A stretch of DNA of 64,000 nt from an uncultured bacterium (GCA_964387845.1 CAYLXA010000010.1:1-64000); one strand, 5' to 3'; numbered from the stretch's first letter, positions 135-47,781 are shown. Notes: a model not told the origin generated them from the sequence alone. Program-made: numbers and translations.

Positions 135-1538
135 TTATATGGCGGAAGGGCCGGCAGCGTGAAAAAGTCCGTCGATATCCAGCTTCTTGCGGCGGAAGAG
201 TTCAAGGTCGGTTGAATTGAGGCTGGTAGAAGAAGAGGGCAGAAGAATGTTCACCAGTTCCAGATAATCAAAATCCTGGAATTGATAGCTTCGCATGACG
301 GTCACAAATTCATTTACGACGATATTGAACACATACAGAAAATCTTCATCGTTCATCCAATCTTCAATCAGCGCGGCCGGCACACCCGGTGACGCAGGTT
401 TAGGACGCATGCTGAACTCGAGCGAAAAATAGCTGCGCGCACCTTCTTCTTTTGCTTTTTGATAATTTAACTCGATTTTGTGTGCACTGATCGTATTAAA
501 GACACGTTCATCAATCGACAAAGCCGAATTGATGCGCCGCGTAATCTGCGTCGCTAAAAAATCACCCGTCTGGATGTCATCGACTTCGAATTCGGGTTTC
601 CATTCGCTTAAATTTTCATCGAGATTAAGCTCTTCGGGAAACGGGATTTTCTGCAGGATGCCGCTTGAATCCACAAAATTAAACGGGATGATCCTTGAAA
701 TTGCGTACTGTTCTGGCGTCTTCCCTTCAATGACAAAAATATATTCGACCGTGGAGCCGGAGGGATATAAAAATTCTCGCGGATTGGCTCCGGGTTTTAC
801 ATCATAAGTTTCTTTCACCTTCACATAAACGAGCGCCTCGCCGTCGGATGAAACCTGAGAGCGGAGGTCGAGAAAATCGAAATGAATGTTCGTTTTATTG
901 TCTGCTTCTAGGAGTGTCCGGTGGAAAAAGGGAGACAACGATTCGTTATCGATCTTGCGTGAGAAATTCTCAGGCAGGATTTGCTCAATCGGGTCTGTAC
1001 CGATTGCGTTAAATAAACGCTTCACCGGCCGTGACCAGACGACCGTGCGGTTAAGCCGGAGATCGTGTAAGACGCGTTTTCTGTATTCATTCCGCGAAAT
1101 ATCCCAAAGCCGGACGCGCTTGATATCCGAAACATTGCCGACCAGCACCATTTCAAGGCCGGTGTTTTCCGTGTCGGTTGCCTGCAGAACGTAAAAATCG
1201 ATTTTCTTGTCGGTGCTCAAAACGACCCGGGATGTCGTGAATAAAACATCTTCCACCTGCTCCATGGCTTCCGGTGACGGCTCGAGAAGCGATTCGATGT
1301 TCTGGACGTTGGCCAGCAAAGCTTCTTTCAGGTTTGTCGCAAATAATTTTCTCAAGGGCAGGAAAACGCCGATGGTGTTGCCGTTAAACTTCACCTGGAT
1401 GTTTTCGATTCCGTATTCTTTGCGGCAAATCTCGCGCAGTTCATCGACAATCCGGTTTTCAGGGTATGTTTGATGGCAGCCCGCGAGCGCCAATGCCAGC
1501 ACGATAACGATGAGTGATTTTGAAGTCATGTTTTTCAT
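135..1538 (-). CDS. Hypothetical lipoprotein (467 aa)
   Basis: N-terminal signal peptide with lipobox (LALALAGC). No recognisable catalytic motif. Confidence 0.5.
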   Translation of the reverse strand: MKNMTSKSLIVIVLALALAGCHQTYPENRIVDELREICRKEYGIENIQVKFNGNTIGVFLPLRKLFATNLKEALLANVQNIESLLEPSPEAMEQVEDVLFTTSRVVLSTDKKIDFYVLQATDTENTGLEMVLVGNVSDIKRVRLWDISRNEYRKRVLHDLRLNRTVVWSRPVKRLFNAIGTDPIEQILPENFSRKIDNESLSPFFHRTLLEADNKTNIHFDFLDLRSQVSSDGEALVYVKVKETYDVKPGANPREFLYPSGSTVEYIFVIEGKTPEQYAISRIIPFNFVDSSGILQKIPFPEELNLDENLSEWKPEFEVDDIQTGDFLATQITRRINSALSIDERVFNTISAHKIELNYQKAKEEGARSYFSLEFSMRPKPASPGVPAALIEDWMNDEDFLYVFNIVVNEFVTVMRSYQFQDFDYLELVNILLPSSSTSLNSTDLELFRRKKLDIDGLFHAAGPSAI

Positions 1539-1603
1539 ATAAAAGCAAAAACGCCTTCAGCGCTTAAACCTGTGCCGAAGACGTTTTGACTATCCGAGCA
1601 AAA

Positions 1604-3289
1604 TTATTTTTTGCTTTCTTCGGTTGCTTCCGCTCCGACTTTGCCGTTGCCGTCCGTTTTCGCATAGGAAAAGAGGCGCGGGTTCGGCTTTCCGTATTCG
1701 TTAAATATCGCTTCGATTTCGTCGTATTCCAATTCTTCGCGTGTCAATAATTCATGCGCAAACCGTTCGTAAATCGCTTTTTCTTTTGTCAAAAGCTGTT
1801 CGGTTTCTTTCAAACATTGCTGCATGATATCGCCCGTTTCCTTATTGAGCTGGTCCTTCATTTTTTCGGACATCTGGCTCTCGGGCACAACCGTGAAATC
1901 GCCAACCAAACCGGAATTGCCCATGCCGATTTTCCAGACCATTGCATGCGCAAGCGCCATGGCTTTCTCAAAATCGGACGAAACACCGTTAGAAGTTGAC
2001 CCGAATTTCAATTTTTCGCCCACATAGCCTGCAAGACAGACTTTAATATCCGCCAAAAGGGTTTCCTTGTCTTTCGTGAACCATTCCTCGCGCGGTGTCG
2101 GATGAACAACGCCTAGTGCGCTTTTTCGAGGAATGATGGACGCTTTAAACACGTCGCTGCGAGGATGGATCAAATAAGTGACGACGAGGTGACCGGCTTC
2201 GTGATGTGCTGTGATTTCTCGTTCGCGCGGCGTCATCTTAATTTTGTGTTTCACGCCGAGCTCAATGCGCTCAACAGCATCCGAAATTTCACGAAACGAA
2301 ACAACTTCTTTTCCCTTGCGCGTTGCAATGAGCGCGGCTTCTTTTACAATGTTCTCGATTTCGGCCGGTGATTTTCCGACGGCTTTGCGCGCAAGGCGCC
2401 GGCAATCGATGGAGCTTTCATGCTTCACTTTCTTCAAATAGTACTGGAATAGACCTTCGCGTTCGTCTAAACCGGGGCGCCCGATGTAAACTTTTCGGTC
2501 AAAACGACCGGGCCGCAGCAAAGCAGGATCCAGGGATTCTTCGGGCGCGTTCGTGGCACCGATCACAATCACATTTTCCGCTTCCGCGCCGAGGCCGTCC
2601 ATTTCGACGAGGATTTGATTTTGTGTTGAATTGGTTTCTGAATTTCCGAATTGATTGAACGTGCGGTTTTTGCCCATCGCGTCAAGTTCGTCGATGAAAA
2701 TAATGCAGCCGCCGAATCCGTATGCAAGCGAACGGGCTTTCTTGAAAAGTTTGCGGACACGCGAAGCGCCGACGCCGACGAAAATTTCGACAAATTCACT
2801 CGCCGCCATGGAAATAAACGGAAGACCGGCTTCCGTCGCAATGGCTTTCGCAAGATAAGTCTTGCCGCATCCCGGAGGTCCGAGCATCAAAATACCGCGC
2901 AGGATTTTCCCGCCGATTTTTTTGAGTTTGGCGTGGTCTTTGATGAGTTGAACAACTTCCCAAGCTTCTTCTTTGGCTTCTTCAATGCCGATCACGTCAC
3001 TGAACTTAACGTTGACCTCATCGCCCTTAATGGATTTCTTATCGACTTTGGCGAATCCACCGCGCATAACGCCCATGTACATATAAACGAAAATGAGCGC
3101 GTTTAAAGCCACCATTACCATTTGGATCGGCATGGTCGCAAGCGTGATATTGCGGTAATAAGATTCAAGAGACATCATTCCCCAAACTGCTAAAATCACC
3201 AGAACGATTCCGGCAAGAATAATCAGGATCGTCGTGCGGTAATTGAGGAAATGCATTTTCATGCGGCGGTAAAACCTGGATTGAGACAT
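1604..3289 (-). CDS. ftsH: FtsH-family ATP-dependent zinc metalloprotease with a short periplasmic loop
   Basis: Two N-terminal TM segments, Walker A GPPGCGKT, DELD Walker B, and a C-terminal HEAGH zinc-binding motif. Confidence 0.85.
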   Translation of the reverse strand: MSQSRFYRRMKMHFLNYRTTILIILAGIVLVILAVWGMMSLESYYRNITLATMPIQMVMVALNALIFVYMYMGVMRGGFAKVDKKSIKGDEVNVKFSDVIGIEEAKEEAWEVVQLIKDHAKLKKIGGKILRGILMLGPPGCGKTYLAKAIATEAGLPFISMAASEFVEIFVGVGASRVRKLFKKARSLAYGFGGCIIFIDELDAMGKNRTFNQFGNSETNSTQNQILVEMDGLGAEAENVIVIGATNAPEESLDPALLRPGRFDRKVYIGRPGLDEREGLFQYYLKKVKHESSIDCRRLARKAVGKSPAEIENIVKEAALIATRKGKEVVSFREISDAVERIELGVKHKIKMTPREREITAHHEAGHLVVTYLIHPRSDVFKASIIPRKSALGVVHPTPREEWFTKDKETLLADIKVCLAGYVGEKLKFGSTSNGVSSDFEKAMALAHAMVWKIGMGNSGLVGDFTVVPESQMSEKMKDQLNKETGDIMQQCLKETEQLLTKEKAIYERFAHELLTREELEYDEIEAIFNEYGKPNPRLFSYAKTDGNGKVGAEATEESKK

Positions 3290-3440
3290 CTGACACTCCT
3301 TAAAAACTGCTAATTGCTGTTATTGAACGATCAAAACAATACAATTATAACCTAAAAAGACACGTGAGATTAAACTATACCTGAGAATGGCAACGCTTGT
3401 CAAGCTGACGGATCAGATAAAAATTTCCATAAGTCATTTA

Positions 3441-3752
3441 TTAGTAATAGCTTATGTCATATTCCTCTTGGGAGCCCTCTTTATCCTCCGATTCATCCTT
3501 AACCCACTCCCACTTTTTCAAGGACGCTTCCTCTAATTGCTCAACCGGAGCTTTCACAAAAAATACGCCGGTATCATGCACCAACTTAAAAGTCGGTGCC
3601 GGAGCCCCAGGTTTTGGCTCATCTTTTAAAGTTTCTTCAGTTACCGGAACCGCTTTTGACTGGGTTTCCAAAATAGGGTCTCGAGATCCGAAGGCCCAAG
3701 CTAAATTTGAAATCATGCATAAAACGGCAAGAATCGGAAATAGTTTTACCAT
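3441..3752 (-). CDS. Small secreted hypothetical protein (103 aa)
   Basis: Signal peptide MVKLFPILAVLCMISNLAWA followed by an acidic C-terminus. Confidence 0.4.
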   Translation of the reverse strand: MVKLFPILAVLCMISNLAWAFGSRDPILETQSKAVPVTEETLKDEPKPGAPAPTFKLVHDTGVFFVKAPVEQLEEASLKKWEWVKDESEDKEGSQEEYDISYY

Positions 3753-3866
3753 CTTTTTATGAACCCTTTAAACCACATACCTAAAAGTTTACCACATGTT
3801 CTGTAGTCGTAAGTGGTAAGCTCATACGATTCACTTACCACTTAGCACTTAACACTTACAACTGTT

Positions 3867-6620
3867 TTATGCGAGATACTTCTTCAGAAACTGGCCCGTA
3901 TGGGAGCCGCTTGTTTTCATCAATCCTTCAACCGCGCCGCTGTAAACAATTTCGCCGCCCTTTTCGCCGCCTTCCGGCCCGAGATCGATCACATAATCGG
4001 CACATTTAATAATTTCCATGTTGTGTTCGATGACACAGATTGAATGGCCTTTTTTAAGAATCTTGTCAAAAGCCGACAGCAAAAGTTCGACGTCATGATA
4101 ATGAAGGCCGGTAGTCGGCTCATCAAACAAATAAAGCAGGTTGGAAGTCCCGTTATGGCTCATCTCCGCCGCCAGCTTGAGCCGCTGCGCTTCTCCGCTT
4201 GAAAGCGTGGTTGCGCTCTGCCCCAGCCGTAAATATCCCAAACCCATATCCACCAGGATCGAAAGCTTCTGCACAATGCGCTCTTCGGTAGAAAAAAACC
4301 GGACCGCTTCATCAATCGTGAGCTGCAGCACTTCATGAATATTTTTTCCGTGATAACGGATATCCAAAACATGATTTTGATAGCGCGTTCCTTGGCAAGA
4401 TTCACACGTGACAAAAACATCGGCCAAAAAATGCATTTCAACTTTTAAAAACCCGGCACCTTCACAGCGTTCGCAGCGCCCGCCGGGAACGTTGAATGAA
4501 AAAAGGCCGGCTTGAAGTTTTTTAGCCTTTGCGTCTTTGGTTTTCGCGAATGCGGCGCGGACATCATCAAAAACTTTGAGGTACGTCGCCGGATTGGAGC
4601 GCGGCGTGCGGCCGATCGGCGACTGGTCAATCAAAACCATATCGGAAATTAAATGGAATCCGTCCGTTTGCCTCGTTAAACCGACTTCGGAAATGGGTCG
4701 CCCGCGAAACCGTTCGTAATTGGCGTACAAAATATCATAGAGCAGTGTACTTTTCCCGGAACCCGAAACGCCGGTCAGCACCACCAGCCGGTGAAGCGGA
4801 ATTTTGAGCGAAATGTCCTTCAAATTGTGGTGCCGCGCGCCGCGGATCTCGATCCAGCCGTCGTGCTTGCCGTTTGTTTTGAGGTGTTCGCGCTCGATTT
4901 CGAATTCATGTTTAAAATATTTGGCAGTCAACGATTGGTTTGATTTTTTTAGCTCAGCAAAAGGCCCCGCGTAAATAATTTCACCGCCTTTTTCGCCGCC
5001 AAACGGCCCCAGGTCGATGATTTTGTCCGCCGCTTCGATCATCGAACGGTCGTGTTCGACAATCACGACCGTATTGCCGCGGTCGCGGAGTTCTTTCAGA
5101 AGCCGGATTAGCATATGATTATCGCGCTCATGAAGGCCGATGCTGGGCTCATCCAGCACGTAAAGCGTATCGACGAGTGCGGAACCCAAGGACGTGGCCA
5201 AATTAATCCGCTGAGCCTCGCCGCCCGAAAGTGTGCGTGAAGCGCGGTCGAGCGTCAGGTAACCCAAACCGACTTCGTCCAAAAAGCGGAGCCGGTTATT
5301 AATTTCGAGGAGAATCGGTTCTGCAATTTGGCTTTGCTGCTCATCCAATTTGAGCGTATGAAAGAAAGCCCTGCTTTTTTCAATCGTCATTTTGCTGACT
5401 TGTGAAATATTGAGCTCGGCAATTTTTACCAGCGTTGCTTCGGGCTTGAGACGAGCCCCCCGGCATTCACCGCACGGAAGGTAAGCGCGGTACTTGCTTA
5501 GAAAAACACGGACGTGCATTTTATAAACTTTTTTCTCGAGATATTTGAAGAAATCCTGAACGCTGAAATAATCACTCGTGCCGTCACCGTTTAAAATCCA
5601 ATTTTTTTGTTCTTCCGTGAGGTCGCGGTAGGGTTTATCGAGCGGGATTTTTTTGTGGCGGCAAAAATTCTTTAATTGGTCGAATTCGGATTTTGCACTT
5701 GGTTTTGTCCACGGTTCAATGGCGCCCTGCGCAATTGATTTTGAATCATCGGGAATGACCAAATTCCAGTCAATCGTAATTACGCGCCCAAAGCCCTGGC
5801 AGGCCGGACATGCGCCGAGCGGGTTGTTGAAAGAAAATAAATTCGGCGTCGGGCTTTTGTGCTCAATGTCGCAGGTTCCGCAGGCAAACCGGTTCGAGAA
5901 ACGGAGCGTTTCCTTGCCGGCCAAGATTTCAACCCTGCCCTTCCCATATCGGAAACCTGTTTCAAGAGCTTCAATAACGCGCGAATGATTGTCTGAATGA
6001 ATCTCCATTTCATCCGCCATAACGGACAACGGGGCTGCGACTTGTTCTAAAACATCAATCGCGGCTGTTTTCCCTTTTGACCTCGCTTTTAAAAACCCCT
6101 GCTTTTCATATTCGGCCAAAGCCGATTTCAGGAATTTCGCCGAATTTTCCGAAGTTTTAACGGGAAAAAGAATTTGGACATTTTCTCCAGAATAAGTTTG
6201 CGTAAGAAATTTTGAAATTGATTCGGGCGTATCAACGCTGACTAATTTACCGCACTTCGCGCAAAAAGTCTGGCCAATGCGTGCAAACAAGAGCCGCAAA
6301 TAATCGTTGATTTCGGTTTGGGTGCCGACCGTCGAGCGGGCATTGGTGACAATATTCTTTGCTTCAATTGCAATCGACGGCAAAATGCCTTCGATGAATT
6401 CGATGTCCGGTTTCTCCATGCGCTCTAAAAATTGACGCGCATAGGAAGAAAGCGATTCCACATAACGCCGCTGCCCTTCGGCATACAGAGTATCGAAAGC
6501 GAGAGACGACTTTCCGGAACCGCTCACGCCGGTCACAACAGTCAGTGTCCGGTAGGGAAAATCAATACTCAAATTTTTAAGATTGTGCGTTCTAACACCG
6601 CGTAAGGAGATAGCTTTCAT
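3867..6620 (-). CDS. uvrA: Excinuclease ABC subunit A
   Basis: Tandem ABC ATPase modules (GVSGSGKSSLAFDTLYAEGQRRYVESLSSYARQFL and a second GVSGSGKSTL), zinc-finger cysteine pairs, 917 aa. Confidence 0.95.
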   Translation of the reverse strand: MKAISLRGVRTHNLKNLSIDFPYRTLTVVTGVSGSGKSSLAFDTLYAEGQRRYVESLSSYARQFLERMEKPDIEFIEGILPSIAIEAKNIVTNARSTVGTQTEINDYLRLLFARIGQTFCAKCGKLVSVDTPESISKFLTQTYSGENVQILFPVKTSENSAKFLKSALAEYEKQGFLKARSKGKTAAIDVLEQVAAPLSVMADEMEIHSDNHSRVIEALETGFRYGKGRVEILAGKETLRFSNRFACGTCDIEHKSPTPNLFSFNNPLGACPACQGFGRVITIDWNLVIPDDSKSIAQGAIEPWTKPSAKSEFDQLKNFCRHKKIPLDKPYRDLTEEQKNWILNGDGTSDYFSVQDFFKYLEKKVYKMHVRVFLSKYRAYLPCGECRGARLKPEATLVKIAELNISQVSKMTIEKSRAFFHTLKLDEQQSQIAEPILLEINNRLRFLDEVGLGYLTLDRASRTLSGGEAQRINLATSLGSALVDTLYVLDEPSIGLHERDNHMLIRLLKELRDRGNTVVIVEHDRSMIEAADKIIDLGPFGGEKGGEIIYAGPFAELKKSNQSLTAKYFKHEFEIEREHLKTNGKHDGWIEIRGARHHNLKDISLKIPLHRLVVLTGVSGSGKSTLLYDILYANYERFRGRPISEVGLTRQTDGFHLISDMVLIDQSPIGRTPRSNPATYLKVFDDVRAAFAKTKDAKAKKLQAGLFSFNVPGGRCERCEGAGFLKVEMHFLADVFVTCESCQGTRYQNHVLDIRYHGKNIHEVLQLTIDEAVRFFSTEERIVQKLSILVDMGLGYLRLGQSATTLSSGEAQRLKLAAEMSHNGTSNLLYLFDEPTTGLHYHDVELLLSAFDKILKKGHSICVIEHNMEIIKCADYVIDLGPEGGEKGGEIVYSGAVEGLMKTSGSHTGQFLKKYLA

Positions 6621-33839: not shown

Positions 33840-33891
33840 AGGGCGAGCATTATAGCGGGATTATCGCAAAATTGGAAGAGCCGCTCGCATT

Positions 33892-36800
33892 TTAGGCCGC
33901 TGTTAATTGGGCCCAAGCTGCGCGAAGTTCAGAACGTAAAGATTCGGCGATTTGGTCGACGCCAAAGCGTGTGGTCAATTGATCGGGTGATTCCAGGCGA
34001 GATTCAAACTGAACATTTCGGAGTTCAGAGCGCAATTGATCCGCAAAATGCTCGTCTTTACCTTCCACACCATAAAGCACGAATTTAATATTATTTCCGG
34101 TGATTCCTTTGAGAACGGTTGTCGCATTTGTTCGTGTCACAATGTTCACAGAGTGGTTTGCATTATCATCTCTGAAGAAATGATTTTTCAAGAACGATGC
34201 CTGCATTTGTGTGCCGCCGAAGATAACAACAGGCCCTGATTTTCTCATGACCGTTGCTCCGGCATACGCAATCGGCAGATTTTCCAACATGCCCGGTGCG
34301 ACACCATAAACAATGATTGTTTGATTATCATCGGTTTCAATTGCTTCGCTTTGTCCAGCTGTTAAAGAAACTGCTTCTTGAATTGAAGAATGAGGCAAAG
34401 TCGCATACGCTTCTTCAAATTGATTCGCCGAATTTGCCGCCCGGCCCTTAATTTCCGGCGCAATAACACTTTCCCAAGTTAAAGATTCAAATGAAACGTC
34501 AGATATATTATTTTCCTGATTTATAACGCGTAACTCGGACGAAGGCGGGATTACCAGCTTCGCCAAAGCAGCGCTTTTCGGGTCAGAAAAGCGCAATTTC
34601 GATCGACTTGAACGCCTCCTTTTTTCGCGACTAACACCTGTCTCTGTCTTTAAACGGCGCTGATGGCCACCTCTCGGAAAAACTTTTTTATTATAGGTGG
34701 GCGGCTCTTTTGTCCTAGAAAGTTTTCTATCTGGCCTTGGCTTGCCGCGATGGCTAAGCGCTCCGTAGTTTTGCCAATCATCAAGAACTCCGACTTTCGA
34801 ACCGCGGCGTCCTTGCACAAATTTGTAAATATTGCCCTTGCCATCAATATAAACAAATCTCAAGTCCCATCCATTTATAACTCTATAAACACGATCTGGA
34901 AGGCCATCTCCATCCAATTCAATCAATCTCCATTTGTGCCGGCTGTTTTCCTGAACATATACTTCAATTCTGCCAAATATTTGATGATTAAAATGATGGT
35001 AACCAATCGCTTTAAGCGGCTCCCATTGTCCATATTCATCAGGCTGATTATTCTTGACCCAAACTTCATCTGCAAAGAATTTTTCCCGCAAATTGACAAG
35101 CCTCAGATTTCCTGTGAAACCTGATTCAATAGTGCGATTGGTTTGATAGGCAGCCTGGGCAATCCATGCCATAATTACCTTTGCAATTTTTTGTTTGGAC
35201 CATTTATGATAGTAGTTAGCTGAGAAATTATCGAATGGCTTGAATTGACTTGTGATCAGTTTGTTTGAATCGAGATAAAAGCCTACAGAACCTGTACTTT
35301 CATATCCGTAACCCTCATCAAAACCGACTAGAATTTGATAATTTTGTCTACCTGCGCGAACAATCTGCAACAATACCGGATCTCGCGGAGAATAAGGATT
35401 ATTTAGTTTAACGGTATATGTTTTCCATTTTGGATTATCAAAATTTGGAATAAAATCTGCGTTCGACTTCGCGCGCAATTCGGACTTTGCGTCATCGGGA
35501 CGCGAATGATTGGCCATAGGTGCTTTTTCTACAATTTTATTATCACTATTTTCTATATTGACAGGGCCCCGTTTATTTGATATAAGAAAGTCCTCTTCGC
35601 GCACAAACTGAAAAGGAGAATTAAGAATGGTAGAACGTGAATTCACCGCAAGAGAAGTCGGTGCGCTTGTTGAATCTTTCCGGAATGACATTTCCGCCAT
35701 TGCAGAAGGCGTTAGCGGGTTGGCTGTCCGAATGGATCGGGTAGAAGCCAGACTCGCAGTGGTAGAGGTTAAATTAACGTCTGTTGAAGACGCTGTTCGC
35801 GTGGCGGTTCCCAACCACGAATCCCGCATCACCAAACTAGAATCCAAAGTTTTCGGCCGCTGATTATCTTTGCGCAGCTCGGACTTCAGAGAGGCGATTC
35901 CAAAAAACAATGCCTGGCCCTGTTCATTTTTAATTGTTTTCATCACTTGCAGACCACCATCAATAAACTTTTGAAAAATGGTTTCTGGCATTCGATGGTC
36001 TGCCCTGATTCGGCCCGTTGGACTATCCCAAGCTCCCTCAAGCTGATTATAAAAAGTTGTGGCAAAAATTCCTTTTGGTTTAAGAATACGCCTAATGCTT
36101 CGCGCGGCCCGGCTGGCCCGCTCAGTAGACCAGATTTCGATTCCAGGCTTCAATTGAAGAATGGGCATCCCCTCTTCCCTGACATAATCCCACACTGCTT
36201 CATCATCTAAATTACGGTAATGTTGCTTTGTTTCAGCGTGATTGGTAATCAATGCCCAATATAAAACCGAAGAAGCAATGATTAAATCAAATTGCTGGTC
36301 AGCAAATTGACTTAAATCCAAAATATCTGCCTGAACCGCACTCGCCCCGAACCGTTCTTTCGCAAATTGAACCGCATTCTCGTCGATATCAGCCACAATA
36401 ACATCAGCCCCTTTTTGCCGAAGCCATTCAAGGATACTTCCGTCTCTGGCAGTTCCAATTTCAAGCACCCGCTTGCCTTTCCAATAATCCTTTTTCAAAC
36501 TGTCGATTTCTCTCAATCCATGCAAAATGAGTGGTGCTGTACCGCTAGAAATCATTACATCTTCTTCGCCGCGCAGCTCGGCTCTGGCTTTCCGATTAAT
36601 ATCTGACCCGGGCACTTCATTGTGAGCCGGAGCGGACTTCGCGGCGCCTTGGTTCTCTTGCAAATCAATCGATGACATGAAAATATCCCGCCGCGATGTG
36701 ACATAGCCGGCAACATGCATGGTAGACCCTTCGACCGAAAGAGCGAGCGGCAAGTAGTCTTTGGGAAAGTGAAGCAGGCCATTTTCAAATTGCGTTTGAT

Positions 36801-39800
36801 CAATTTGATTTGAGCGGCGGTCAAGTGCAACAATCGCTGAGCCCACTTCAGGATCTTCCCTATTTAACCGATGTGGTGCAACATGCAGGTATGCGGTATT
36901 TCCAAAAATAGAGTTCGGCCAATCTTGCGTAAAAAGTTGATAGGGTTTTTGATTGATCGTCACTTCTCCTAATAAATTGCCCGCTTGATAAACAAGCTCT
37001 CCTGTCTTGATATCCACAACACCTATACCGCTCAAAGGCGCATGCGAATCAAGAATTAAATGATCCTGATTCGAGCGTAAATATCTCACATATTGAAATA
37101 ATTTCGCATTACGTTCATAAACACCTTCTTTTAGTTTGTCAGTACGCAAATGACCGCTGACAGGATCCAAGGCATAAACTTTAGAGGAGCCCAATCCTGT
37201 GAAAAATAAAACGCCTTGAGTGAAGGTGATAAGCGGCGTTGAAACTATTTCATCGGGAAATACTTGCTTCAAATCGAGAACGCCTTTTTCAAATTTGGCA
37301 TGATCTGGCTTTCCGTCACTCATCCGAAACGCGTGAATATAAGCCTGGCCTTTCCGGGCTCTGTCATCAACCGGATGGACATCTGTCTTTCGATAATAAG
37401 CAGCATACAAAGTTTGTCCATCTTCGCTCACGGCCAACGAGTTAATCCGTGCTTCCGGGTCAATCTTTTTAACCTCGTCCGACAAATTTAAACGTCCGTT
37501 CGACCACTTTTCAGACATTAATGCTTTGCGATCTAAATCAACTGCTAAAATGTCACCCGTGAACGAAGTCAAAATGTAAGCCGCATTTCCTCTGGCCACC
37601 ATTTCACGAGGCATGTCCTGAGACGAGATATGAAAGAATCTCTCATTATTTTGCCGCAACTCGGAGCGGGTTTCGGGCTTCGCTTCCATTAGTTTTTTAA
37701 TTTGAGCGCGTGCTTCTGCAATCATTTGATCCGTAATTTCACCCTGCTCTTTGCCGAGCGCCCCCAAGATTTTCGAATCTAAATTGCTTTTTTGGCTGAG
37801 TTCTAAACTGTCATAACCGATGTCTTTTTTCAATTGAACGATCTTTTTATAATTAGAAAAGGTGCGAAGAAAATTAACAACCGGATCCAGCGAGACATGC
37901 TGCCCATCGTCAGTTGCATAAGATCCCAGCAAATCCAGAGTGGTTGTTGCAATCATCAATTCAATTGCCTGGTTAAATTGATCTTCGCCGCGGATGCCTG
38001 CCTGCTCAAATTCCTGCCTTAATTTCTCCAATTGTTGAGCACGATGAATCGAAAACGCAAAAATGTGATGTTTAATGATTAATTTCAAAAGCGCATTGCT
38101 TGAAACGTCCATTTCACCGAAGTGAATATGATTGTCACTTAACACGCGAAATGATTCGAGTTCATGGCCCGGAAATGAATGGTCTCCATTCTCTTTGAAC
38201 TGCATTTTGGTTTTCTTGCCGATATCATGAAGCACGATAAATGCTTCCAATATCGCGCGGTCTTTTGCATTCCAATCCTTAATCAGATTGATCGCATCTT
38301 TGGGCGCTGTAGTGTTTCGGTCAATTTGATTGAGTGCCGAGAGAATGGCTTGTAAATGGTCCTGAAGTTTAGCATTCTGGCCGCCTTCCCTATGAAACAG
38401 GCTGTGATAATGAGGCGTTTCCAAAAAATCCGCATATTGATCCGGAATGCCAGATAACTGTTTCACCAATTCATCCAATGCTGAAGCCGGCCCATACTGG
38501 CGCAGCTCGGAGCGCTGTTCTTTTATCCATTGCACCAAACGCCGATAGTCAGTAACGCGAAGCGACATGCGGGAATTTCCGGGATTCGGCGCTATGATAA
38601 ACTGGTCGGCGGTTCCTCGAACCTTTTGGTACACAAAGACGAGAAACATACCGTAAAACCCCTGTGATTCCGGAAGGCCCCGGGCAACCCAATCCGCTTC
38701 AAGAATTGACCTGAGGACATTTGCCTTGATGGTCAACTCGTCCGGTTCCTTGTTTGCATCTAATTGTGCGATGACGGATTGAAAATATTGCAGAACTACC
38801 GCGTTTCTCCGTTGACTTTGAAGATCATTCCCCAATCCTTCAAAAAGTTTTTGCGTAAAGCGCTGCGCATTACCCATTTGATTTAAATCACGGACCAATG
38901 CCCGATATTCGCGCCGGTAAGCAAGCCATTCGTCTTCCAAATGCATATCAACGGAGCGCACAACCTTCTTAAATGCTTCCGGACTTGTTATCAATGGCTC
39001 CATGTCTGATTTGCCATGCAATTGCTTAACAAAATCAATCAGATATTTCATGCCCTCATCTGCTTCTCTGGCCAATGCGGCATTGATCAAGTGCGTACCT
39101 TCATGGATCATGACATATTTAATAATCAGAGGTGGAAAATGAAGCGCGAAGTCACGATTGATAGTCACATGAGTCACGCTTCCGTCTAATGAAGTTTTTA
39201 TACGTGCATACGAATGCCTCTGCAAAGAGCTTAATAAAGTGTCATCGAGAACGGGATTTTTTTTAAATGCCTCGATAAATTTTAATGCTGTTTTTTGATC
39301 GTCTAGGTTTGAAATTTCGGAAGCAATTTTTTCAAGGCGGTCCACAACCGCTTGAATTTCAGGGAGAAATTCGGGAGTTCTGATCCACCGCAAGATAGGC
39401 CATGCAGCAAATAAAGCGGTTGTTCCTGCACCGATTATTATTTGCCTGCGGCTTGGCAGCCAAAATTTCTTAGCAGGCTCTTCGCTTTTTACTCCCTGAC
39501 GCCGCTCCTTATTTTTTCGTCCGTTCTCACTTGCGCGCAGCTCGGCGCGGGAATTTCCGCTTGGAAGCTTGATGTTAAATTCTGCGGCTGCGTGGGCCAG
39601 CGCACGGTCGCGGTGCTCTCCATACATCAAAGCTTCCCGATGATTGTTTAGGCCTTTTTTCTTCCGAATTCGCTTTGCTTTATGCACAGAAGCCCTGGTT
39701 GAGTACTTCAAAGAAAGCGGCGCTGCCGGAAGCTGAATGCCGAACCGTTTCGCAGCATTGTAAAGCGCCCTGTCCCGATGCTTGCCTCGGGTTAACTCGC

Positions 39801-42800: not shown

Positions 42801-45800
42801 ACATCATCATTACTTCCCCGATACTGGTACCTTTATTGAAATTTCCTTTTACATATTTTTCAAAGAAAGATTGTTTTAATATATTGAGATCCCCTTTACT
42901 TTTTTGCAAGATTCTTAATGCGGCATAACCTTCGGCAAGTAACGCATCGTTATCAATATATTTCAAACCAGATCTAAGTTTTTTTCCAAATTTATGCGTC
43001 AATTCGTGAGCAATTAGAAGACGGAGTCCCCACCCAGAGCCCATGCGTTTTAATTCGTTAGGATTAATTCGAATTCCATAATCAAATCCCGTGGCAAGCG
43101 TGTCGGGAAGCATTGCCACAGCAGTCGGTTTATTTTTAATCCAGATTGTTACGCCGACAGCAGCCAGACCGATAGCAGCAAAACCAAATAAAAAATCACG
43201 ACGTGTTAGTTTTTGTTTCGATTTAGTTTTATTTTTTCTTTCTAAGAAATATTTGAGGGAAAATATTGAGAAAATTCCGCTCAACAATGATAAGAAAATG
43301 GATAAGAATGTTAGGTATGCTTTTGGCTGCTCGATTGCAACCCCTATTGAGTCTGTTAAACGATTAATCAATTCTTCTTTTTGTTGCACAGATAAATCAA
43401 CGGCGTAACGATTTATAAAAAACTCAACTTCTTCCCGTACAATTTTTCTCTGTTCTTGGTCTAATTGAAAAACAAACGGTTTGTTCGATTCGCGCAACTC
43501 GGAACGGGATTTTCTCAAATCTATGTCAAGTAAATGCTGCAAAGCTAATCTCACCTTCTCTTCTTCCATGCCATCCAACTCTTGAAGTTGCCGGTCTGTA
43601 AATGCTTGGATCAAGCGTGCCATGGCTATGGACCGTGTAGAAAATTGATGCAGGTAATCATCAACGATCTGTTTTTGTTTTGCGCTTACTTGTTCCATCG
43701 AAATTTCGTTACGAGGAGGAAGGTTAAATGGATTTGGCGAACTATCATTTTGATTTAAATCATCGTAAGCTTGCCACAGAGCTCCGTTCTTACCGTAAAA
43801 ATATTTGCCCCACAATTGCATTCTGATATCTGAAACTTCCTTCCATTCTTTGTCGGCATCATTGATATCGGTTTCAAAAACGTATGGCGCTTTTTCCTCA
43901 TTAATTCCAATCGACGCCTCAAGCGGACCAAAAATAAGCGCCCCAGATTCAGAATCGACAGTGTTAAGGCCTTCTTGAACATAGCCATGCAGGGTATGAT
44001 TCATGAGCCAATTGAAATAATCATGCACAACTTGATTAAATCTCTTCGCACTCATTGATCTTCCATTCCAATGCTCTGCGAGAAGCCTGTCAAAAGCGCT
44101 TTTCTCTCTCGACGCGCCATTTTCTATAGGTTCTGAACGCAGCTCGGCCCTTGAGCCGAGCGGGCTCAAGGACGGCTTCGGCATCGCAGCTCGTTGCGGC
44201 AAAGTCCGAGCCGCCCTTTGTTGCAGCAGTTCCGACTTCGAATCGGCTGGAGTCGAAGTACGGACAGTCCTCAACTCCGCTCGAGCTGAGGACTCAGCGT
44301 GGACGGGGTTTAAATTAGGTGCTTTTTTTACAATTTTATTATCGCTATTTTTTATATTGACAAAGCCCTGATTGTTTGATATAAAAAAAGTCCCTTCGCG
44401 CGCAAACTTTAGGAAAGAAGAGAAAATACGATGACCAAAATTCCAAAGCCCGGCTCCGAATATTCTGAAGAGCGTGAATTCCGCGTCATTTTGGAGCATC
44501 TTGAAAGCCAGTTCCGTACTTTTGGTGAGGGGATGAACCGGATGGAACAAAAACTTCAAAAACTGGACGGCATTGATCGCAGACTGACTAGCGTAGAAGA
44601 AGATGTTGGATTGATTAAGGTCAATCTTAAACAAATTAATATTGATCTTAGAGAAGTCAGAGGTGATATCATGGTTCTGAAAACTGACGTTAGAGTCTTG
44701 AAAAGCGCTTTCAAACCATTCACCGCCCAAGTTTCCGATCACGAGCACCGGATTTCCGCTCTTGAGCGTTCCCGTTAAACGCAATTCCGATCGACTTAAA
44801 GGTAGCTGCAATACCTTCGTGATATGATTTTCAACCCATGGCCATAATTCTTTTGTGATAGATTTGAAATAATCGGAAGAAACTTGATACGGGCGCGCGC
44901 CAAACTGGATCTGATTGGCCAAATCAACCAAATCTATTAAGTGCCGCGCATCGGCTCCGATGAGATAGAAAAGAAATAAGTATTCCTGGGCAATTGTCAA
45001 ACCACCTTTATTTTGCCGACTAATGACCAGGAATGCGTGATATCTCAAAGATTCTTCCAAGATCACCTCTGGATTCCCTTTTGAATCAAACAAGCGAGCT
45101 TGTTTGATCCTTTGATTGAACAATGCCGTGTTGCGCTTTTGCTTTAATGCGTTTTCTATAAACAACGGGTGATACAAATCTTGATTGTATGCCCAGTGCA
45201 GAAAACGGAATTGGCTGAAACTCTCGTAAAATTCGGATGAAATATTTTCAGCAGCTAATCTTGAGATATCGGATAAATGTTTAACTGCAAAATTGGGAAT
45301 TCCTGATTTTTGAGGCCACCTTCTTTCTCCTAACGGAATTTTCTGAAATTCTTGCATAACACCTTGTAATTCTGAAACATTTTTCGGCATCCAATTTTTT
45401 GATTTTGACAAATAATGAACCCCATAAGCTTCCCTGACAATGACAGATGCCAAGTTTTCAACAAAATAATCCTCGGCATATGGAAATTGGTTAATCAATT
45501 TCACGGAATCAAAAAAAGATTTCACGTTGATTTCTAAATCGATTTTTCCGTTCTCATCAATTGTTTTTTGAAAATGAATCCCCAAATTAGCTGCTTCCTG
45601 CGGCAGCAGTTTAGCCTGTTTGACTAATTCGGAGTAATTCTTAAGAATGTCAGTATTCGGATATCCTTTGGCAATTAACCAGTCGATTGTTTTTTGAATA
45701 GCGTTTTGAACACTTGCTAAATCGGCACGCGAAAGTTGAATCTCGTCCATCAGGGATTTATTTTGTTTAAAAGATTTTCGAACGGCGTAAATCGTACCTG

Positions 45801-46333: not shown

Positions 46334-46600
46334 TTATCTGAAATCTTTATACTTATCATTCAGCGTTTTTTGGATATCTTTTACCTGCGCTTTTGCCTGC
46401 TCGCCCAACCCAATTTGGGTCTGAGTATAACCGCCGGTTAATTGATCAAACAGGCCTTGTGAGGCGGCCTGCTTTCCCTGCTTCGGATGTTTTTGTTCCT
46501 TCTTCCCGATCCACTGGTCTAAGTAGCCCATTTTCCCCGCGATTAAGAACATAATGATAATCAGCGCAATTAAAAGATTGATTAAATTGAACCCTTTTTC
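46334..46600 (-). CDS. Small single-pass membrane protein (88 aa) with a prepilin-like N-terminus lacking Glu5 (MKNEKGFNLINLLIALIIIMFLI). The ORF-track N-extension to 46798 is spurious.
   Basis: The start is set at MKNEKG. The longer call overlaps the upstream membrane-protein gene in another frame. Confidence 0.45.
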   Translation of the reverse strand, partial: EKGFNLINLLIALIIIMFLIAGKMGYLDQWIGKKEQKHPKQGKQAASQGLFDQLTGGYTQTQIGLGEQAKAQVKDIQKTLNDKYKDFR

Positions 46601-46620
46601 GTTTTTCATGATGTCTCCTT

Positions 46621-47781
46621 TTAAGAAATCATTCTCAAAATTTGGGCACATAAAAGCCCGGCGTAAGTTCCGGCGATATTTCCCAAAATGCCGAGCAAGA
46701 GGCCAACAGGTGCAAGCTGCGGATGATAAACCGCCGCCACAATCGGCGCCGACACCGGCCCGCCGATATTCGCCTGGCTTGCGGCAGCGGCAAGGCACAT
46801 CGGCGATCTTGTGATCCGGGATGCGGCAACTAAAAATGCCGCATGAATCAAAACAATGAGAAATCCCGCCGCAATCAATATCGGCACTCCGCCGATTTCA
46901 TTCAAATTTGCTTTTGCGCCGATCGATGCCAAGACAAGATAAAGCAGCCCATAGCCGATTTTTGAGGCGCCGTAAGATTCTAATTTCCTCACACGCGTAA
47001 ACGAACCCAAAATGCCAATCGCGGTCGCGATTAAGATGGCCCAGGTCGTCACAGAAAATCCGGCGGTTACCGGAACCAACCGGGCCAAATAAATTGAGAT
47101 GATGAGGCCGATAAATGCGGTGCACAAAATTAATCCTGTTTTTTGCGCAGACAAGCGTACCCCCGCCCCTTTCGGAACCGTCCCTTTAGCTCCGAGCGAA
47201 ACAACCATTCTCTGATTTGATTGATTCCATTGGTCGTAGCGGTGCTGAAATGTTTGGAGCGCAATCAAAATAGCCATCCACGAATAAGCAACGACGATAT
47301 CGACAATCACCATCGGCAGAAAAATAGGATCCGGAACCTGAATTGCTTCTTTGACGGCAATCATGTTGGCGCTTCCGCCGGTCCAGGACCCGGAAAGCGC
47401 CGCAAAACCCATCCACGCATCAGTGCCGAGCCATGGCTTAAAAATCGTCACGACAATGAGCGTTCCGGCAAAAATTCCGGCACTTCCTGCGAACATCATG
47501 AAAAGCGCATACGGGCCTAATTTTAAAATGGCGGGAATATCAACACCAAGCAGAAGCAAAATCAAACTTGCCGGCAAAAGATAAGTTGAAATAGCCGAAT
47601 AAACAACGCTTTCCGACGGAATAATTCCCGCAGCGCTGAAAATCATCGGCAAAAAATAAATCCAGAAAACGGCGGGGAGAAAGCGGAAATATTTTGAAAA
47701 TTTTGGCTGAGACGACATTCGAAGAACTGATAACTCGATCGTGATTAAGGCAATCACAACGAGAATAGGATTTTGCATCAC
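46621..47781 (-). CDS. Polytopic integral membrane protein (386 aa), DUF819-like/putative transporter
   Basis: About 10 predicted hydrophobic helices. No soluble domain. Confidence 0.5.
   Translation of the reverse strand: MMQNPILVVIALITIELSVLRMSSQPKFSKYFRFLPAVFWIYFLPMIFSAAGIIPSESVVYSAISTYLLPASLILLLLGVDIPAILKLGPYALFMMFAGSAGIFAGTLIVVTIFKPWLGTDAWMGFAALSGSWTGGSANMIAVKEAIQVPDPIFLPMVIVDIVVAYSWMAILIALQTFQHRYDQWNQSNQRMVVSLGAKGTVPKGAGVRLSAQKTGLILCTAFIGLIISIYLARLVPVTAGFSVTTWAILIATAIGILGSFTRVRKLESYGASKIGYGLLYLVLASIGAKANLNEIGGVPILIAAGFLIVLIHAAFLVAASRITRSPMCLAAAASQANIGGPVSAPIVAAVYHPQLAPVGLLLGILGNIAGTYAGLLCAQILRMIS

Follow-up and report, generated by a model that had tools for sequence, protein, structure and literature searches.

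The 64,000-nt stretch of DNA from an uncultured bacterium analysed in this study (GCA_964387845.1 CAYLXA010000010.1:1-64000, hereafter the window) carries on its minus strand a giant open reading frame (ORF), which belongs to a family of chromosomal giant ORFs in which a conserved R-[S/A]-E-x-R tag stands between modules of protein size. This ORF occupies 33892-46236 (stop codon included), is uninterrupted and encodes 4114 aa. It is a genuine gene, and about 16 modules of its product each close in the pentapeptide [R/K]-[S/A]-E-L-R. The start codon is TTG, seven bases after a Shine-Dalgarno-like AGGAAA, a sigma-70-like site lies at 46297-46269, and the identical 4114-aa product was called in an independent public assembly (Logan SRR15237813). 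Our preferred reading, to which we give a probability of roughly 0.55, is that the product is a cellular polyprotein diced at the tags by an Arg-directed protease acting in trans. The original prediction, which had been made from the sequence alone, covered only the middle 57% of the gene (36036-43008, from the first HExxH motif at aa 1077 to the end of a methyltransferase at aa ~3400) and proposed a multi-enzyme machine of effector- or toxin-like or self-processing nature; neither the pentapeptide punctuation nor the scarcity of Cys was mentioned in it.

Cut at the tags, the giant protein falls into about 16 protein-sized modules of 44-864 aa and, at the C-terminus, two very short pieces. Of the 18 pentapeptides at junctions, 17 fit [SA]ELR and the 18th reads RSKLR. 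By chance 0.29 copies of [SA]ELR would be expected, none of 2000 shuffles gave more than 4, and just 2 copies occur in the 18.5 kaa (thousand amino acids) that the window's other ORFs encode. In unbiased discovery of k-mers and gapped patterns, SELR was by far the strongest signal (13 vs 0.14 expected, P ~1e-21). The Leu of the tag is encoded by five codons (TTG 7, CTG 7, TTA 2, CTC 1, CTT 1) and the last Arg by six, and the likeness of the DNA between tags is confined to the 15-20 nt coding for the motif, so the tag is selected at the peptide level and not as a DNA element. The gene contains no tandem repeats, and a DNA repeat or repetitive extragenic palindromic (REP) element was rejected as the origin of the tag.

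The tags sit in polar, disordered linkers, at the exact ends of independently folding units, as illustrated by module 11. When this module was cut at its tags, AlphaFold returned one compact unit (predicted local distance difference test, pLDDT, 92.8; predicted template modelling score, pTM, 0.89), in which only residues 1-4 and 277-282 were of low confidence, the latter being TRSELR. The original prediction had seen an HD phosphohydrolase-like motif here. Pfam HD by itself was sub-threshold (18.8 bits vs 22); an exhaustive HMMER search found 30 relatives of the module, and their alignment keeps H48, H91-D92, K95, H112-E113, H145 and D189. The metal ligands H48, H91-D92, H112, H145 and D189 are all present and are invariant or nearly so in 12 homologues, and the profile of the module matches HD domains in PDB (E ~1e-4). 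Module 11 is thus strongly confirmed as an HD-superfamily phosphohydrolase. The predicted S-adenosylmethionine (SAM)-dependent methyltransferase was likewise borne out by module 13 (Methyltransf_11, 47.1 bits vs a cut-off of 21.2, aa 3253-3397), which shows motif I (VLEIGTARDG) and, in VIVADID, the acidic residue, and which also matches methyltransferases in PHROGs and PADLOC; its sequence has diverged strongly, and a word-indexed search gave no homologue at E <= 1e-5. The methyltransferase domain and the HD domain each lie within a single module.

The R-[S/A]-E-x-R punctuation was also found in at least three other giant ORFs from uncultivated bacteria, with lengths of 6.7 to more than 7.9 kaa. 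R[SA]ExR occurs in 20, 11 and 11 copies in P0004, P0009 and P0011, respectively, against ~0.5 expected (20-45 times expectation), and RSE.R occurs 20 times in P0004 vs 0.17 expected (P ~1e-34). L086, which holds the same gene (100% identical over 17 kb), shows 20 copies in at least 6993 aa and is open at both ends; since the frame is open upstream of the Met of P0004 (L082 1-345) and is extended by L086, the 6523-aa P0004 is a truncated gene call, and the true length of the protein is more than 7,900 aa. P0004 contains Metallophos, PRK/uridine kinase, PEP-utilizers_C, APH and three receiver domains, P0009 contains receiver, PPDK_N, ARMT1-like, APH, HAD, PRK and dCMP deaminase domains, and LSDAT is also among the enzyme modules of the relatives. 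A tag lies inside none of the five Pfam domains of P0004 and none of the seven of P0009, and most of these domains are tightly bracketed by two tags, e.g., a receiver at 4683-4800 between tags 4665 and 4816, and HAD at 4730-4927 between tags 4710 and 5007; with the window ORF counted in, the joint chance of tags avoiding domains is ~6e-4. Homologous modules are shuffled in order among the giants, yet their ends coincide with tags. The three homologues in the module 10 family, which are 34-35% identical, close at the same column with an invariant R-S-E-x-R.

Across 60 sites the core of the tag is conserved (R 55/60, S/A 60/60, E 57/60, a variable x, R 60/60) and the flanks are not. The flanks of these 60 motifs are more polar than random positions (0.749 vs 0.657, P = 2e-13) and less hydrophobic (P = 1e-11), and Pro never directly follows the tag (0/60). 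Position 4 varies from genome to genome but is uniform in any one of them, being L in the window ORF and in P0009 (mostly RAELR), M or V in P0004 (mostly RSEMR/RSEVR) and N or A in P0011 (mostly RSENR/RSEAR). Some tags stand in tandem, 7-26 aa apart, as at aa 2248/2255 of P0004 and aa 864/873 of P0011.

We infer that a sequence-specific endopeptidase recognises the tag. A strict, exposed motif that is placed at boundaries, homogenised within a genome and sometimes tandem has the properties of a protease recognition site and not of a structural linker; a structural linker would hardly be expected in tandem, or only 9 aa before the window protein ends. The uniformity of position 4 per genome is the pattern expected if the sites co-evolve with a trans-acting reader. 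In the simplest version, the enzyme would cut behind the last Arg and be guided by P5 Arg, P4 Ser/Ala and P3 Glu, and the precursor would be diced into separate proteins, as in viral polyproteins. The processing enzyme would act in trans and is probably encoded elsewhere in the genome, because no module is common to all four punctuated giants and no protease gene consistently adjoins them.

Cleavage would also make sense of three internal motifs that resemble twin-arginine translocation (Tat) signals. SRRTVIK at aa 127 (outside the range of the original prediction), TRRDFLF at aa 1011 and SRRQIII at aa 2262 are each followed by a hydrophobic stretch of 18-22 aa, and all three are internal to the ORF and not at its N-terminus; the Pfam TAT_signal score is below threshold (18.4 bits vs a cut-off of 22.7). 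In two cases the motif stands 17 and 28 residues past a junction, where the n-region of a Tat or signal-anchor sequence would be expected to begin, and only if the junctions are cut would these [ST]-R-R-x-hydrophobic signals, in modules 3 and 10, come to stand ~17-28 residues from new N-termini. So freed, they may serve as Tat or signal-anchor sequences, and the HD, methyltransferase and like modules would be released as soluble enzymes.

Several points weigh against the polyprotein reading. No protease candidate was found beside any of the giants, and the cleavage is predicted from sequence. Modules can exist in unpunctuated fusions, since P0007, P0027 and P0010, which share the HD module, are without comparable tags. 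The Tat-like motif of module 7 lies 96 aa past the junction, behind another transmembrane (TM) helix, and the N-terminal signal-like segment and the depletion of Cys fit export of the whole chain at least equally well. The comparison comprises four or five examples only, three of which were found through sharing a module with the query.

RNA viruses characteristically express polyproteins whose junctions share a uniform cleavage motif. For cellular bacterial genes with many heterologous enzymes such expression is, to our knowledge, essentially unknown. It is conceivable, at somewhat less than even odds, that polyproteins are a genuine cellular strategy of an uncultivated lineage (Kiritimatiellota-related and others), with precursors of 4-8 kaa made of unrelated proteins; the same estimate also takes in a dedicated R-[S/A]-E-x-R endopeptidase whose specificity co-evolves with the sites of each genome, and a protease and a strategy both undescribed. 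The released set would then comprise soluble enzymes, signalling receivers and membrane-anchored or Tat-exported proteins. No prior description of the R-[S/A]-E-x-R punctuation was found in the full-text literature, the coverage of which is incomplete, so that novelty does not follow from this absence. Should cleavage at the tags be confirmed, it would arguably amount to a way of expressing genes that is new for bacteria, in which a set of proteins is made at fixed stoichiometry and delivered together with no need for an operon; it would also point to an undiscovered protease with a clean five-residue specificity, a possible tool enzyme. The tags also give a simple rule for splitting giants into modules for structure prediction, as was done for the HD module.

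The composition of the gene bears on where its products may act. The giant protein has one Cys in 4114 aa, located in the N-terminal hydrophobic segment, and none after aa 28, whereas the mean in the other 39 ORFs of the window is 0.86% (binomial P ~1e-14). This near absence suggests sites of action outside the cytoplasm or in a different cell for the products. The Cys content of the related giants is 0.17-0.23%, and low values are also seen in envelope proteins of the window, namely AsmA (0.11%), a 1554-aa SdrD_B/CHU_C protein (0.19%) and its 575-aa neighbour (0.17%). The GC content of the giant gene is 0.436 vs 0.468 for the rest of the window, and the GC content at third codon positions (GC3) is 0.41 vs 0.58 for leuC, which is compatible with a foreign origin or weak expression.

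The two HExxH modules that the original prediction placed behind Tat-like anchors are present at the level of sequence, each downstream of a Tat-like motif and a hydrophobic helix. The motifs are HELTH (aa 1077-1081, module 7) and HEGTH (aa 2378-2382, module 10), against a chance expectation of 0.16 (P(>=2) = 0.012), and a Glu follows each of them. HELTH-x20-E, with E1102 at +21 in an AEGY context, would correspond to thermolysin/M1-like (gluzincin-like) spacing as a sequence pattern, and in HEGTH-x11-E the Glu stands at +12 within a conserved EGM. Neither module matched a peptidase family in Pfam, NCBIfam, PHROGs or PADLOC, and the two are unrelated to each other. Over its whole length, module 10 is homologous to P0004/L086 aa 1835-2252 (E = 3e-50), its only full-length homologue, which reads HDATH where module 10 reads HEGTH; the catalytic Glu is replaced by Asp and is not conserved. 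The AlphaFold (AF2) model of module 10 was unusable (pLDDT 38.6). The term zincin for modules 7 and 10 is a motif-level guess. The original prediction is thus partly confirmed: a multi-enzyme giant processed into pieces is supported by the conserved pentapeptide at every module boundary here and in related giants, but the zincins as its built-in autoprocessing protease are not, given the lack of a peptidase family match, the HDATH homologue, the unrelatedness of the two modules and the absence of any module common to the four giants.

These modules bear directly on the reading of the giant as a secreted multi-effector toxin of the MARTX-like or polyvalent-like kind, delivered to another cell and cut by its own zincin modules. 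The Cys-free chain behind a signal-like N-terminus, the nucleotide-centred enzymes (HD and methyltransferase here; kinases, phosphatases, deaminase and LSDAT in the relatives), the low GC3, which suggests foreign or weakly expressed DNA, and the gluzincin-like spacing of HELTH-x20-E are all in its favour. We consider it improbable nonetheless, since besides the missing peptidase match in four libraries and the HDATH homologue, the zincin-candidate modules are absent from the equally tagged P0009 and P0011, and both of those in the window giant are membrane-anchored. There are no terminal Gly-rich or tandem repeats and no type I secretion system (T1SS) genes nearby, and a cysteine protease domain (CPD) is impossible in the giant, as its mature chain is without Cys; the MARTX-type toxin suggested by analogy in the original prediction therefore fails on repeats, CPD and T1SS partners alike. 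The gene lies among housekeeping genes, with no sign of a phage or conjugative element around it, and it has no viral relatives: a search of viral contigs found none, BFVD gave only weak matches, and the sole PHROGs match is the methyltransferase. An effector or toxin role as such is possible, and the Cys scarcity, the signal-like start and the low GC3 are compatible with it.

An uncleaved giant multi-domain envelope or surface protein, with the tag as a linker element (hinge, partner docking, or chaperone or secretion recognition), is the main alternative, which we judge unlikely. The signal-like N-terminus, several TM helices and scarce Cys resemble the AsmA and SdrD_B/CHU_C proteins of the same genome, no protease has been identified, and homologous unpunctuated giants exist. 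It leaves unexplained why position 4 is homogenised within each genome and why tags occur in tandem or 9 aa from the C-terminus, and the unconserved flanks and the disorder of the tag in the module 11 model argue against it, as do the typical cytoplasmic enzymes and receivers of the related giants; the internal Tat-type motifs would be functionless in an uncut chain. That the ORF is an artefact, with genes fused by an assembly or sequencing error or by pseudogenisation, or with a DNA repeat that happens to read as RSELR, is hardly credible. It has on its side only the prior caution over giant ORFs in metagenome assemblies, and it is contradicted by a 12.3-kb stop-free frame in 44% GC DNA, which is impossible by chance, by the identical product in two independent assemblies, by the related gene that is 100% identical in two more, and by the synonymous variation of the tag codons without an underlying DNA repeat. 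Furin, site-1 protease (S1P), PEXEL and RxLR motifs were rejected as the identity of the tag because their residue spacing is wrong. A 2A-like ribosome skip was ruled out by the unconserved flanks, a sortase-type sorting signal by the lack of a C-terminal TM segment with a basic tail, and a precursor of ribosomally synthesized and post-translationally modified peptides (RiPPs) by the size of the modules, which are far too large.

By analogy, the closest functional counterpart of the giant is the viral polyprotein. Like the polyproteins of the picornavirus, flavivirus, potyvirus and nidovirus type, it is one long ORF with many unrelated protein-sized units and the same short motif in an exposed linker at each junction, uniform per genome and drifting between lineages. 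Unlike them, it is a cellular chromosomal gene amid leuCD, arg/dap operons and ribosomal protein genes, and it is without an identified protease module, its cleavage being a prediction.

Among bacterial proteins, MARTX toxins and polyvalent proteins are closest, and the giant differs from both in defining features. MARTX toxins resemble it in having 3.5-5 kaa, a central array of heterologous enzyme modules and disordered linkers (PMC3153235). They are cleaved after Leu in these interdomain linkers by an internal CPD, an inositol hexakisphosphate (InsP6)-activated cysteine protease that is the last effector, at only 3-4 sites set mainly by the P1 Leu, and they have conserved Gly-rich terminal repeats and T1SS partners (PMC3153235). 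Unlike them, the giant is without such repeats, its mature chain lacks Cys, and its strict pentapeptide occurs 18 times. The polyvalent proteins of Iyer, Burroughs, Anand, de Souza & Aravind (2017) are reportedly very large multi-enzyme proteins, often with methyltransferases and zincin-like peptidases, for which proteolytic release is said to have been proposed, and they are reportedly encoded on phages and conjugative elements. The giant differs from them in its housekeeping context, in having the methyltransferase as its sole PHROGs match and in the lack of viral contig relatives. We know of no common junction motif reported for polyvalent proteins.

Giant proteins of Omnitrophota ('Archaeovorins'), with TM segments and many domains, have been proposed to undergo post-translational cleavage; they are 30-85 kaa long, rich in adhesion and carbohydrate-binding repeats and carry C39/S8 peptidase domains, and where they would be cut is unknown according to the authors (West-Roberts et al. 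2023, bioRxiv 10.1101/2023.11.21.568195). They and the window giant are alike as giant ORFs in uncultivated PVC (Planctomycetes-Verrucomicrobia-Chlamydiae)-related bacteria, but in the window giant the candidate cleavage points are explicit, which bears on whether and where giant bacterial proteins are cleaved. In multi-cassette precursors such as cyanobactin PatE, yeast alpha-factor and neuropeptide precursors, short repeated recognition sequences flank the cassettes and are read by a dedicated trans-acting protease, and the cassettes of RiPP and pro-hormone precursors are peptides of 6-30 residues. The units of the giant are, unlike these, folded enzymes of 100-860 residues.

The features of the giant ORF are collected in Table 1.

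Table 1. Features of the 4114-aa ORF in window coordinates, listed from the N-terminus to the C-terminus.
Feature	Coordinates	Strand	Protein position and remarks
N-terminal signal-like hydrophobic segment	46153-46236	-	aa 1-28, MKQYLKITAILIIFCFSIQNTIG..., holds the sole Cys; hydropathy scan
Junction 1, LSELR	46069-46083	-	aa 52-56
Junction 2, KSELR	45907-45921	-	aa 106-110
Tat-like SRRTVIK and hydrophobic helix	45772-45858	-	aa 127-155; RR 17 aa past junction 2
Junction 3, RSELR	44779-44793	-	aa 482-486
Junction 4, RAELR	44269-44283	-	aa 652-656
Junction 5, RAELR	44137-44151	-	aa 696-700
Junction 6, RSELR	43492-43506	-	aa 911-915
Module 7	42484-43491	-	aa 916-1251; closes with junction 7, RSELR, 42484-42498
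Module 7, TM helix			aa 975-998
Module 7, TRRDFLF and TM helix			aa 1011-1033
Module 7, HELTH	42994-43008	-	aa 1077-1081
Module 7, candidate third ligand E1102 in AEGY	42925-42936	-	
Module 8	39892-42483	-	aa 1252-2115, 864 aa, without recognisable domain; closes with junction 8, RSELR, 39892-39906
Module 9	39535-39891	-	aa 2116-2234, very basic; closes with junction 9, RAELR, 39535-39549
Module 10	38500-39534	-	aa 2235-2579; closes with junction 10, RSELR, 38500-38514
Module 10, SRRQIII and TM helix			aa 2262-2285; RR 28 aa past junction 9
Module 10, HEGTH	39091-39105	-	aa 2378-2382; conserved EGM at aa 2394-2396
Module 11, HD-superfamily phosphohydrolase	37654-38499	-	aa 2580-2861; closes with junction 11, RSELR, 37654-37668
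Module 11, HD dyad	38224-38229	-	aa 2670-2671
Module 12, putative propeller, orphan	36571-37653	-	aa 2862-3222; closes with junction 12, RAELR, 36571-36585
Module 13, class I SAM-dependent methyltransferase	35872-36570	-	aa 3223-3455; closes with junction 13, KSELR, 35872-35886
Module 13, Pfam core	36046-36480	-	aa 3253-3397
Junction 14, KSELR	35473-35487	-	aa 3584-3588
Junction-like RSKLR	34591-34605	-	aa 3878-3882
Junction 15, SSELR	34528-34542	-	aa 3899-3903
Junction 16, RSELR	34018-34032	-	aa 4069-4073
Junction 17, RSELR	33922-33936	-	aa 4101-4105; 9 residues before the C-terminus

The modules of the window giant are orphans or very divergent, and clear housekeeping homologues that are merely fused were not found among them. 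The beta-propeller of the original prediction is unsupported: module 12 has no family match and no Pfam repeat, none of 1.84 billion representatives proved homologous to it, and it shows no significant internal periodicity. Reference-genome scans with module 8 gave no relative. Word-index searches with modules 10 and 11 together, the core of module 7 and module 13 returned nothing, not even the self-match, and hence carry little weight. Module 9 (28% K+R) contains two copies of a ~25-aa unit G[KE]HRDRAL..., GKHRDRALYNAAKRFGIQLP and GEHRDRALAHAAAEFNIKLP, which lie within 39598-39780 of the window (minus strand, aa 2145-2230). The only real DNA repeat in the giant gene is a 93-nt direct repeat (35517-35609 and 44316-44408, 85% nt identity). 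It codes for the C-terminal part common to modules 4 and 14 (F/LISNxxGxVNIxNSDNKIVxKAP), which are 41% identical at the protein level over 93 aa (E = 2e-13), and represents a fairly recent internal duplication or gene conversion.

With regard to punctuation in other HD-containing giants, the idea that each of them has some punctuating motif was ruled out for P0027, P0010, P0020 and P0023. P0007 has a weak junction candidate, G-x-S-L-G, in polar linker-like sequence (7 vs 0.27 expected; aa 829, 1744, 2203, 2557, 3053, 5777 and 6449), and P0003 another, [MF]GSEG (aa 1183, 1398, 1609 and 1754), at the termini of the HD module and two duplicated domains of this protein; the statistics of both candidate motifs are weak after multiple-testing correction. 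Many of the HD-containing giants, namely P0007, P0009, P0010, P0011, P0023 and P0027, start with a signal or TM segment, behind which lies a conserved domain with the motifs 'IQDxHxxxxAQxNI ... GGFH'; the window giant lacks this domain.

The context of the window is that of housekeeping genes, including leuCD, GT4, rpsI/rplM, AsmA, RNase III, an argCJBDFGH-like operon and lysA/dapF/dapA/dapB, and no secretion system, T1SS genes, RTX repeats or mobile-element context were found in the 64 kb. Downstream of the giant gene lie leuC and leuD, with 52 nt (33840-33891) between its stop and the start of leuC and no terminator-like site on the coding strand in between, so the 12-kb gene may be co-transcribed with leuCD. 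Upstream lies a 91-aa prepilin-like ORF (46334-46609, minus strand; MKNEKGF followed directly by NLINLLIALIII), whose prepilin-type N-terminus has Asn in place of the usual Glu5, and a polytopic membrane protein of the DUF819 family is encoded on the same side. A mechanical 154-aa ORF call at 46334-46798 (minus strand) overlaps the DUF819 gene by 178 nt, and the real prepilin-like gene likely starts at 46609 (MKNEKGFNLINLLIALIII..., 91 aa). Both flanking membrane proteins had been noticed in the original prediction as possible accessory export components; they are indeed present, but nothing ties them to export.

As judged from one gene, leuC, the organism is probably a member of Kiritimatiellota in the PVC superphylum. 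The leuC product is 73-75% identical to those of Kiritimatiellia metagenome-assembled genomes and 68% identical to that of Pontiella, and the next best matches (65-67%) belong to unrelated phyla. In the two nearest Kiritimatiellia genomes, no giant gene stands beside leuC. The organism of P0009 is a fairly close relative of that of the window, with an FtsH-like protein 67% identical, an adjacent lipoprotein 39% identical and the same synteny. The block common to the window (135-6620, minus strand) and L083 (1-6088) consists of UvrA, a small ORF, an FtsH-like AAA+/M41 protease and a lipoprotein-like protein of ~460 aa without Pfam match (39% identical between the two, E = 3e-95). The window ends 134 nt past the lipoprotein gene, which is also where the only public contig (L087) breaks off. 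Directly after this gene, L083 encodes a 6726-aa giant punctuated by RAELR; the window may therefore be followed, immediately outside its coordinate 1, by a second giant gene.

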